In this document: positions 17,428 through 19,084 of the stretch, one piece after another
Position numbering within the stretch: position 1 is the first letter of the stretch
How the letters are laid out: every line of letters starts with the position of its first letter
Assembly (NCBI GenBank): GCA_947627105.1
Contig: CANQUT010000004.1
Coordinates: 9 to 64,008 of the forward strand
DNA from: an uncultured Clostridia bacterium
GTDB lineage: Bacteria > Bacillota > Clostridia > TANB77 > CAG-508
Length of the DNA: 64,000 nt
Direction of reading: 5' to 3'
The notes under the pieces: model-generated
The model's input: only the letters and a program-made list of their open reading frames with translations
Told to the model about the DNA's origin: nothing
Databases searched by the model: none
Made by a program: the position numbers and the translations under genes

Positions 17428-17849
17428 GCAAAATTATTCTACAATCACTATTGATATTAAAAAGGAGTGTAATAAAGAGAGTGTAATAAATTTTTTGGGT
17501 AATTTTAAAATATTACATTTTTATAACATTTTTGTAATAAATAAGTTACAAAACTAATAAATATTTAAATTGATGCTCTAAAATGCTTGATACTGTAAGA
17601 AAATGTGAATATAATATGAAATCTTGCTTTTATAAAATTAAAAGCAAGATTTTGTCTTGTTTACAAAAAAGCTAATTTATGTTTTATTAAATATAACATC
17701 GAAAACAGAATAAAAAATGTAGAAAATGGAAACAATAAACCAAAAGAAAAATATTTGAACAAGTAAGTAGAATAAATACACAAAACTTACATGTACAAAT
17801 AAAAAGAAGAAGGAGGAAAACTAAAATGACAGCAAACCGTTGTGCAAGT

Positions 17850-17877
17850 AGAGAGAGAGAGAGAGAGAGAGAGAGAG
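17850..17877 (+). repeat. (AG)14 dinucleotide microsatellite
   Basis: 28 nt of uninterrupted AG, inside a short ORF that starts at ATG 17826 behind an AGGAGG RBS. Confidence 0.95.
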
Positions 17878-19084
17878 CTATAATTTAAATAAGAGAGGAG
17901 AAATAGGTTTAAATGAAAATAGACCCAATTTTTTAAGCACTGCAAAATACGCTAAAGGTATAACATTAATAGCTTTAGTAGTAACAATAGTAGTGCTTTT
18001 AATATTGGCCGGAGTAACCATAACAATGGTGCTAGGAGAAGATGGAATAATAGCACAAGCAAAACTAGCAGCAGAAAAGACAAAAGAGGCAGAAGAACAA
18101 GCAAAAGGAGACTTAGCAAATTTAACAGAAGAAATAAGCAATATATTAACTAGTGAACCTCCAGAACCAACAAAACCAACTCCAAGTCCAACGCCAACAC
18201 CTACACCAACGCCTACTCCAACTCCAACAATAAAAGAAGCAACAAAAGATGGAACAAAATTTGAAAGAAATACACAATTAGAAGATGAGTACGGAAACTC
18301 AGTAACAATACCAGCAGGATTTCATATTGTACCACATGGGACAGATAATGTAGAATATAAATATTCAACAGAAAATCCAAGAATACCAACAGTGCAAGAT
18401 GGAATAGTAGTAGCAGATGAAGATAATAACCAATTTGTATGGATACCAGTAGGAGAAATAAAAGATGATAAAAATGGAACAACTACAACAATAACATTAG
18501 GAAGATATGAAGATAATAACTATACAGGAAATGCAAAAGATGCAAAAGATGGAAATTTTGTAATAAATATCTGTTATCAAGAATTAGAAAAATCGGATAA
18601 AGGAAATAAGACAGCTAAAAGTATAACAGATTTTGTAAATAACTCTAAATCAAATGGGGGTTATTACTTAGCAAGGTATGAAGCAGGAGTAACAAACTAT
18701 AATGCAAATAATGGAAAAGAAAAATCAAATAGTGAGAAAAAACCAGACTGGACATGGTATGAAGCAGAAGCAAAAAAAACATTAAAATTAGTAAGTAAGA
18801 AAGACCAACAGGTATGGAACTATATAACACAAAATAAAGCATCAGAAGTAGCACAAGCAATGTATCCTACGAATGAAAATTATACAAGCGATTTAACAAA
18901 TAGTTATGCATGGGATACAGCAATAGTGTTCATACAAAAATATTCAGGAGATGAAGATTATTCGAAAGAAAAAGGACCAACATTTAGTAATAGTTTAAGA
19001 AATACAGGAACAACAGAAAAAGACACAGATAAAAGATGTAATATTTATGATATGGCGAGCAACTGTTTAGAATGGACTACGGAA

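Follow-up and report, generated by a model that had tools for sequence, protein, structure and literature searches.

Within the window, that is, the whole 64-kb stretch (27% guanine plus cytosine) of contig CANQUT010000004.1 from an uncultured Clostridia bacterium, a gene body for a pilin-like protein lies just downstream of a long dinucleotide repeat, and the locus (17811-19228) is considered here as a phase-variable gene. All its features are on the forward strand. A Shine-Dalgarno (SD) sequence, AGGAGG (17811-17816), lies 9 nucleotides (nt) upstream of ATG 17826, and a perfect (AG)14 tract (17850-17877) starts 24 nt past this codon; all three were confirmed by inspection of the sequence. 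The interval up to the tract holds a pre-repeat motif of about 17 nt, AAACCGTTG-N5-GTA (17834-17850), which is conserved at repeat-bearing loci and has variants before other repeats. Immediately after the tract comes a stop-codon trap, CTATAATTTAA (17878-17888), with TAA 17881-17883 and TAA 17886-17888, one for each wrong frame; in the frame of the gene body, the same letters read Ser-Tyr-Asn-Leu. The sole ATG-initiated open reading frame (ORF) that enters the tract is MTANRCAS(RE)4RAII-stop (17826-17888), which ends at TAA 17886-17888. Behind TAG 17849-17851, the body frame opens at 17852 and is without ATG, GTG or TTG until GTG 17993. It holds the remainder of a long leader, SYNLNKRGEIGLNENRPNFLSTAKYAK (17876-17956), which aligns with SYILENKKERKGLYENKPNFLSTASGAK of the homologous locus L012, and then the body itself (17957-19228), made up of a Gly(-1)-ITLIALVVTIVVLLILAG hydrophobic segment, a helical stalk, a Pro/Thr linker, a predicted FGE/C-type-lectin-like domain and the stop codon.

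The (AG)14 tract is the only perfect dinucleotide repeat of more than five units in the window. The runner-up is (AT)5, the longest homopolymer is 8 nt, and the tract is far beyond chance. The motif AAACCGTTG-N5-GTA has one match in the window, with 0.18 expected at up to one mismatch and at least one match in 16 of 100 shuffles, and this single match is not significant alone. Among L001-L021, the motif is confined to L001, L011, L012, L013 and L021, all of which bear repeats. No second paralogue or cassette was found when the window was searched for them. An (AG)n tract reads (Arg-Glu)n in all three frames and cannot generate a stop codon, and the number of units needed for the ON frame is 3n+1 (13, 16 and so on). 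The ON-state product would start at ATG 17826 and carry a leader of about 51 residues that contains (Arg-Glu)n. It is very probable that 17811-19228 is one phase-variable gene, started at ATG 17826 and with a hypermutable (AG)n between start and body, and that its product is a protein of the surface or anchored in the membrane, pilin-like at its N-terminus.

The body frame carries ...AKYAKG-ITLIALVVTIVVLLILAG..., and its 423 codons are fully open. More than 7,900 homologues of the body were found at E <= 0.001, the best of them 54% identical, and the family homologues belong to uncultured Clostridia of the rabbit, mouse and human gut. Homologues that lack the repeat have a short basic leader ending in ...K/N-G, followed by ITL(I/V)ALV(V/I)TI(V/I)VLLILAG. 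In an alignment of 119 sequences, G1, I2, T3, L4, A6 and L7 are each at least 90% conserved; position +1 is Ile, and position +5 is a near-invariant Ala instead of the pilin Glu. The Pfam profile N_methyl (PF07963) gave 14.8 bits, under its cut-off of 21.2, and the GspG profile scored 13.1 against a cut-off of 88.85, along with weak profile matches to geopilin, MshA and PilA.

An AlphaFold model based on the 119 sequences (predicted local distance difference test, pLDDT, 85.9) replaced an earlier one from 18 sequences, which was too poor (pLDDT 53). It has an N-terminal transmembrane-like helix, a long helical stalk, a disordered Pro/Thr linker and a C-terminal domain. With the C-terminal ~300 residues, Foldseek returned FGE, pFGE, CarF, TvpA, Mtd, PorK and PvdO; the matches had a probability of about 1.0 and E of 8e-5 to 1e-3, with a template modelling (TM) score of only 0.3-0.47. 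The domain has no significant match in Pfam, NCBIfam or PDB sequence profiles, the pFGE PDB profile giving E 0.23. The model thus suggests a surface protein, anchored in the membrane or pilin-like, whose head would bind a ligand; its function and surface exposure are predicted. The FGE/C-type-lectin-like fold predicted for residues ~100-423 is also the fold of Mtd and TvpA, the variable proteins of diversity-generating retroelements (DGRs); no reverse transcriptase or template repeat was noticed near the switch gene, no systematic search having been made for either. A Pfam scan of 41 ORFs of the window detected neither a prepilin peptidase nor pilus genes, and ComEC (55866-58313) is the only hint of competence machinery in the window.

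The same arrangement recurs in related loci. A total of 472 kb was scanned; 18 of the family loci in it come from species-representative genomes and the other 80 from metagenomes. This sequence has ten dinucleotide repeats of at least six units, and each of them precedes the pilin-like N-terminus encoded by a family gene, at a distance of 30-410 nt and on the strand of that gene. Two further repeat cassettes, L102 and L103, came from a protein search with an in-frame leader, a search that detects ON alleles only. Altogether, 13 cassettes are available, namely that of the window and those of 12 other family members from rabbit, mouse and human gut assemblies. Each is built in the order of a purine-rich SD, an ATG, the pre-repeat motif, a dinucleotide repeat of 9-17 units and stops in two frames. 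In 13 of the 13, one ATG-initiated ORF with a purine-rich SD enters the tract, and the junction after the repeat has stops in two frames within about seven codons. The 'AG-C-TAT-A.T-TTA' junction with its two out-of-frame stops is also present in L011, L012, L086, L102 and L103. The repeat unit itself is AG in nine cassettes, AC in three and TA in one. As the frame of the cassette is conserved while the repeat unit is interchangeable, selection seems to act for a slippery tract at this position and not for a particular sequence. Viral contigs were also scanned for the motif together with a repeat, and nothing was found.

Several family members are carried side by side in some genomes. The rabbit-gut metagenome-assembled genome (MAG) CANRKF (Lapin-022__bin28) holds at least six family paralogues (L012, L014, L015, L016, L017 and L021), with one fused (AG)15 cassette and one (AC)10 cassette in an upstream ORF, and contig NODE-959 (L050/L084) has three paralogues in 15 kb. 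Decay of the cassette is also seen. In L069 (1-100) the repeat is reduced to (TA)4, and interrupted tracts occur among the database peptides, for example, ERKKERER and ERESERER.

In eight of the cassettes, including that of the window, the third post-repeat frame leads straight into the protein, and this is referred to as the fused form. Five of these alleles are OFF, namely the window with (AG)14, L011 with (AG)17, L012 with (AG)15, L093 with (AC)10 and L101 with (AG)10. The other three, L099 with (AC)9, L102 with (AG)15 and L103 with (AG)13, are ON. L093 and L099 are 86% identical and stand one repeat unit apart. The ON-state product of L102, P0122, reads MRIRTQKMNPESVDAL(ER)5SYSLNNKG...NRG-ITLVALVV; ON products of this type show that long leaders with (Arg-Glu)n are normal for the family. 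In the OFF allele L093 (2500-2530), the Gly-Ile is replaced by Ala-Met (KKA-MTLVALVV), which places an ATG at the first hydrophobic residue and could permit leaderless initiation independent of the repeat.

Variation in tract length was observed most directly at a sister locus, which was recovered from twelve human-gut assemblies (L107-L118) in the gene order pyruvate formate-lyase, helix-turn-helix regulator, leader ORF and family gene. The flanks are 99.6-100% identical over 550 nt, and the tract is (AG)10, (AG)13 or (AG)16; judged from these alleles, the sister-locus tract is hypermutable. A relative's leader peptide, when used as a query, retrieved 572 distinct proteins (E <= 0.1) with lengths of 42, 44, 46, 48 and 50 amino acids. 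Leader peptides with identical flanks carry (ER)3 in 92 contigs, (ER)4 in 82 and (ER)5 in 9, and the twelve contigs of the sister locus belong to this set. This look-up shows in-frame length classes only; out-of-frame lengths are present in related loci, for example, (AG)11 in L084.

Two contigs end within tracts of this type. L001, which is 99.8% identical to the window, ends 5 nt into the window's tract, and L050, a contig of 47x coverage, ends inside a homologous one. Look-ups with the neighbouring genes recovered contigs of the same species, none of which crosses the tract, and exact look-ups of the products from starts 17993 and 18026 and of the downstream 1534-amino-acid protein found nothing on record. 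Since no assembly spans the tract of the window, its own variability is judged from the homologues.

An earlier note on this DNA had described AGGAGG, ATG 17826, the (AG)14 tract, the stop at 17886-17888 and a short ORF MKIDPIF-stop, and all of these were found as described. It had also given the body as open from 17852 with no in-frame ATG before GTG 17993, which is correct and extends to GTG and TTG. Its frame arithmetic is right as well: the loss of one AG unit or the gain of two fuses ATG 17826 to the body, and a T7 or T4 run would do so for ATG 17913. The proposal that the AG tract is a slipped-strand ON/OFF switch is strongly backed by the recurrence of the cassette, by the ON and OFF alleles and by the length alleles of the sister locus, and the description of the assembly as an OFF state agrees with a count of 14, which is not 3n+1. 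A comparison of strains had been suggested there, too; it bore out length variation at the sister locus with its near-identical flanks, with the window's own tract spanned by none. The term pilin-like for the body holds for the leader Gly and the hydrophobic segment of ~20 residues; it does not hold for Glu+5, which is absent, or for N_methyl, which stays below its cut-off.

Some observations weigh against a phase-variable gene of this kind. In three samples of the same species, no contig spans the AG tract of the window. Of the six fused-type loci found without ascertainment bias, five are OFF, when about two thirds would be expected. The start codons of the window and of L012 are offset by 1 nt from the semi-conserved 'KTVxxV' pre-repeat frame of the other cassettes. 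Lastly, the ~51-residue leader exceeds the usual length of a prepilin-type signal.

Based on the order of these elements, the switch would work in the following manner. The gene is probably transcribed from the near-consensus promoter at 17587-17615, and translation would begin at ATG 17826. During replication, slipped-strand mispairing would add or remove AG units. When the tract has 3n+1 units, the ribosome would read MTANRCAS(RE)nSYNLNKRGEIGLNENRPNFLSTAKYAKG and go on to translate the hydrophobic segment and all that follows it. Any other count would bring translation to an end at TAA 17881 or TAA 17886, no more than 4 codons past the tract. The assembled (AG)14 would thus be an OFF allele, and cells that carry it are expected to lose expression. 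The hydrophilic leader would either be cleaved or be kept in the cytoplasm; as it would then be absent from the exposed protein, and as (AG)n never creates a stop, the repeat would be free to vary in length without altering what is exposed.

The candidate promoter, TTGATA-17-TATAAT (17587-17615), agrees with 11 of 12 consensus positions, and its function is predicted from this agreement; near-consensus promoter-like sites are also present in seven homologous loci, 76-235 nt upstream of the repeat ORF. Next to it lies a 17-bp perfect hairpin with a T-rich run (17616-17655), which is probably the terminator of the upstream penicillin-binding protein (PBP) gene. It is situated 190 nt past the PBP stop codon and is kept in the 99.8%-identical contig L001. 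This hairpin abuts the -10 box of the promoter-like site, in an overlap with the candidate promoter.

It was also proposed in the earlier note that a T6 run further downstream may act as a second, independent homopolymer switch, with T7 or T4 fusing ATG 17913 to the body through a short prepilin-type leader, MKIDPIFLSTAKYAKG. The arithmetic is correct, GAGGAG stands 12 nt upstream of ATG 17913, short basic leaders are usual in repeat-less homologues, and the configuration of ATG, T6 and stop is conserved in L012. Such a switch is, however, highly improbable. The protein of L012 is 36% identical overall, but its leader is closely similar. The locus has the same cassette, and its T6 likewise runs into a stop codon in the reading frame of the internal ATG. 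An equal length in two diverged lineages, despite diverged flanks, indicates constraint and not hypermutability. Near T6, the changes between the two loci are synonymous (ccc->ccg and tta->ttg) or conservative (aga->aag, R->K) in the body frame, whereas in the frame of ATG 17913 the same changes are radical (D->S and P->R). The leaders differ by a single indel of exactly 3 nt, and in both loci the body frame has no stop between the repeat and the Gly, remaining open for a further ~20 codons upstream as far as the repeat. The ON homologue L102 translates the equivalent segment, HNLSTIGKASNRG, from an upstream ATG, reading the equivalent NLSTIGKASNRG with neither a T-run nor an internal ATG, and its product P0122 has a long leader that begins upstream of the repeat. 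Six nucleotides are, moreover, short for slippage by what is established for homopolymer switches, and eleven other homopolymers of the window are longer, at 8 nt. On this evidence, T6 (17929-17934) is ordinary coding sequence, the codons AAT TTT TTA (Asn-Phe-Leu) of the leader, and the out-of-frame mini-ORF MKIDPIF-stop (17913-17936) is incidental and not a gene start; nor is the short MKIDPIFLSTAKYAKG the true leader. A sequencing error at T6, which the note had offered as an alternative, was rejected because the same T6 is present in the independent, diverged assembly L012. The UUU-UUU-stop, with UAA in the window and UGA in L012, might also allow the body to be translated with no change in the DNA. 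A -1 slip of tRNA-Phe on A-UUU-UUU-stop would give MKIDPIF-LSTAKY... (expected peptide MKIDPIFLSTAK) and leave the AG ORF as a separate upstream ORF, and a stop in the A site generally favours slippage in the P site. This is barely credible, as neither a stimulatory structure nor a correctly spaced SD is evident, the conservation is accounted for by coding in the body frame, and the site is absent from L011, L093, L099, L101, L102 and L103 despite their shared repeat architecture.

The remaining explanations concern the AG tract itself. An out-of-frame allele, an island setting with a transposase fragment and a serine recombinase, and truncated relatives such as L102, which is cut short by an IS110, would all suit a dead or decaying pseudogene in which the tract is a neutral microsatellite with no regulatory role. 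Against this, the 423-codon body is open and conserved, in-frame alleles exist, and there are no long repeats elsewhere; diverged paralogues have a repeat in this very position, though built of different units, and always together with an SD-ATG and an out-of-frame stop trap. A pseudogene is, for these reasons, very unlikely. A role of the repeat as a promoter spacer or RNA-binding element was rejected in view of its position past both the SD and the ATG and of the change of unit from one paralogue to another. A somewhat different case is that of a real switch for which the count of 14, on which the OFF assignment rests, is a consensus or assembly artefact, most of the sampled cells being ON. 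Hypermutable tracts are mixed in populations and hard to assemble, contigs end in such tracts, and no independent contig crosses this one. However, independent contigs that overlap the window match it at 99.3-100% identity, and the assembly, which looks reliable, is otherwise trustworthy in that its SNF2 frameshift is reproduced in four independent assemblies; on the same ground, an error-prone assembly was rejected. A miscounted tract is, on balance, unlikely. The reading preferred over all of these is the phase-variable gene that starts at ATG 17826 and is switched by its AG tract.

In several relatives, the repeat is wired differently. In L013, L021, L051, L084 and L086, it lies in a separate upstream ORF, and the family gene follows 170-410 nt on with its own SD and ATG; partial or degenerate copies of this form are found in L050, L054, L069 and a second paralogue in L084. 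An A-tract/hairpin/U-tract element stands between the leader ORF and the family gene. These terminator hairpins have folding z-scores of -3.2 to -6.3, and compensatory changes were observed in 6 of the 12 stem pairs across eight loci. All five intact cassettes have exactly one long frame after the repeat, while the other two frames stop within about seven codons of it. The long frame is also present in L050, a locus that begins inside the repeat, and in the second L084 copy (L084a), and in 7 of 7 copies its stop codon falls within the loop or the 3' arm of the hairpin or directly behind it. Strong promoter-like sites occur upstream of the leader ORF, and only weak ones between the terminator and the gene. 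One paralogue with an interrupted repeat (L084, 600-1010; AG tract GTAGAGAAATGGAGAAAGAAAGAGAGAG) is locked in the long leader frame. This architecture is absent at the window, where the repeat ORF is continuous with the body and no terminator is present at 17878-17957.

The simplest reading is that the upstream-ORF form may be an attenuator like that of pyrBI, with the reading frame set by the repeat as its input. In the long frame, the ribosome would enter the intrinsic terminator and melt the hairpin, which would lead to read-through (ON); in the other two frames it would stop ~90 nt earlier, and the terminator would form (OFF). In pyrBI attenuation of E. coli, the leader ORF extends across the terminator, and a ribosome that follows closely keeps the hairpin from forming. 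The two share a promoter, a leader ORF with SD and ATG, an intrinsic terminator and a structural gene, as well as a leader stop in or just past the stem. They differ in the variable: in pyrBI it is polymerase pausing dependent on uridine triphosphate, and here it would be the reading frame, which the repeat sets heritably and stochastically. The coupling of transcription and translation is reportedly loose in some Firmicutes. We know of no described precedent for a frame-gated attenuator, and a literature search for one found none. It can be suggested, tentatively and at somewhat less than even chances, that the switch of the window is a single copy of a modular repeat cassette which uncultured Clostridia of the mammalian gut use across this large paralogous surface family in two wirings, one fused and the other a heritable, stochastic, frame-gated transcription attenuator in an upstream ORF.

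The leader ORF of this form was examined in L107-L118 (901-1047), L051 (2254-2400) and L084 (2186-2342), where it encodes 42-50 amino acids, MKKAKTFVGV(ER)nATTLINNNQAKKLALLSIYETDIKYESI, and it is annotated as a gene in hundreds of human-gut contigs. Its strongly conserved core, QAKKLALLS, overlaps AAGCUAAGAAAUUAGCUU, a small hairpin that precedes the terminator; either the peptide or the RNA may be constrained.

Switches of a comparable kind are well known in other bacteria. In Helicobacter pylori, hopZ, sabA, sabB and babB carry CT repeats in the region coding for the signal peptide. The same is true for oipA (PMC10564699). As in these outer membrane protein genes, the dinucleotide repeat lies just past the start codon, in an N-terminal signal region that is removed there and may be removed here, the number of units sets the ON or OFF frame by slipped-strand mispairing, and a surface family with multiple paralogues is involved. 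Unlike in H. pylori, the hosts here are Gram-positive-type, low-GC, uncultured gut Clostridia, the N-terminus is pilin-like (class III-like) with a long hydrophilic leader and not a Sec signal, and the units (AG, AC, TA) are interchangeable among paralogues behind a conserved motif, with an upstream-ORF/terminator version in addition. The opa genes of Neisseria have CTCTT repeats in the region coding for the leader peptide. As with opa, many paralogues with their own leader repeats would give combinatorial ON/OFF states, and one MAG here has at least six paralogues, two of them with repeats. The opa pentamer, however, encodes the Sec hydrophobic core, whereas the dinucleotide here gives a charged (Arg-Glu)n upstream of the hydrophobic segment.

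In Mycoplasma mycoides subsp. capri, the methyltransferase M.MmyCI has an (AG)12 repeat in its coding region (PMC3498834). The unit and the length range are the same as here, the organism belongs to a low-GC Firmicutes/Mollicutes lineage, and a frameshift leads to a premature TAA; M.MmyCI is, however, a cytoplasmic DNA methyltransferase (phasevarion), and its repeat is not in a leader. With type IV pilins and pseudopilins, the family shares the leader Gly and the ~20-residue hydrophobic helix continuing into a long N-terminal alpha-helix, but it has Ala for Glu at +5, a predicted FGE/C-type-lectin-like C-terminus and no pilus genes in the window. To the ligand binders of the FGE-sulfatase/C-type-lectin fold, including the DGR proteins Mtd and TvpA, the likeness is at the level of fold and is not accompanied by a significant sequence-profile match. 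In contrast to DGR proteins, diversity here would arise from paralogues and ON/OFF switching and not from mutagenic retrohoming.

Contingency loci based on repeats are textbook knowledge in host-adapted pathogens such as Neisseria, Haemophilus, Helicobacter, Campylobacter and Mycoplasma, while phase variation in gut commensals has been studied mostly as invertible promoters and methylation switches. When the literature was searched for the N-terminal motif and for phase variation by repeats in Clostridia or gut Firmicutes, neither this family nor repeat switches in Clostridia turned up. What is new is the lineage (uncultured gut Clostridia), the pilin-like leader context and the modular cassette with interchangeable units. 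The loci point to a widespread, repeat-switched surface family with a predicted lectin fold in uncultured low-GC Clostridia of human, mouse and rabbit guts. Annotation records genes of this kind as truncated or 'hypothetical', and contigs are interrupted at the tract, so that the variability of the family is invisible in MAG catalogues. The upstream-ORF/terminator form, if true, would be a new way to couple a repeat to transcription.

The switch gene heads an island of ~17 kb (17428-34400), which interrupts the cell-division and wall (dcw) cluster; the order of the cluster is MraW (10616) ... PBP (15493-17427), island, MurE (34403), MraY, FtsW and MurG. The island contains a PDDEXK_2 transposase fragment (19588-19893), the 1534-amino-acid protein with NPCBM, F5/8-type-C and dockerin domains (20097-24701), a cohesin protein (24784-25518) and a large serine recombinase (29000-30643), and also encodes a sortase, a beta-helix protein and a LysR regulator. 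An ORF at 25668-26693 with no Pfam match has 8.5 in-frame copies of an unusually GC-rich 45-nt unit (25923-26304).

Outside the island, a SNF2-family helicase gene (42416-45398) is split into two overlapping ORFs by an extra C near 44083 (GATGATATGGGATTA[C]GGAAAAACT), which destroys the DDMGLGKT motif. The identical truncated product of 601 amino acids is found in four independent metagenome assemblies, so that the frameshift is real and not an assembly error. A polysaccharide-synthesis/MurJ-like flippase gene (197-2009) is similarly split near 1476 by an extra C, ACATCT[C]GGAAGC; the context, an extra C before GGAA, is the same in both genes. Another ORF with no Pfam match (47106-49151, 681 amino acids) carries in-frame tandem repeats of 36 nt and 45 nt at 47729-47861 and 48051-48163.

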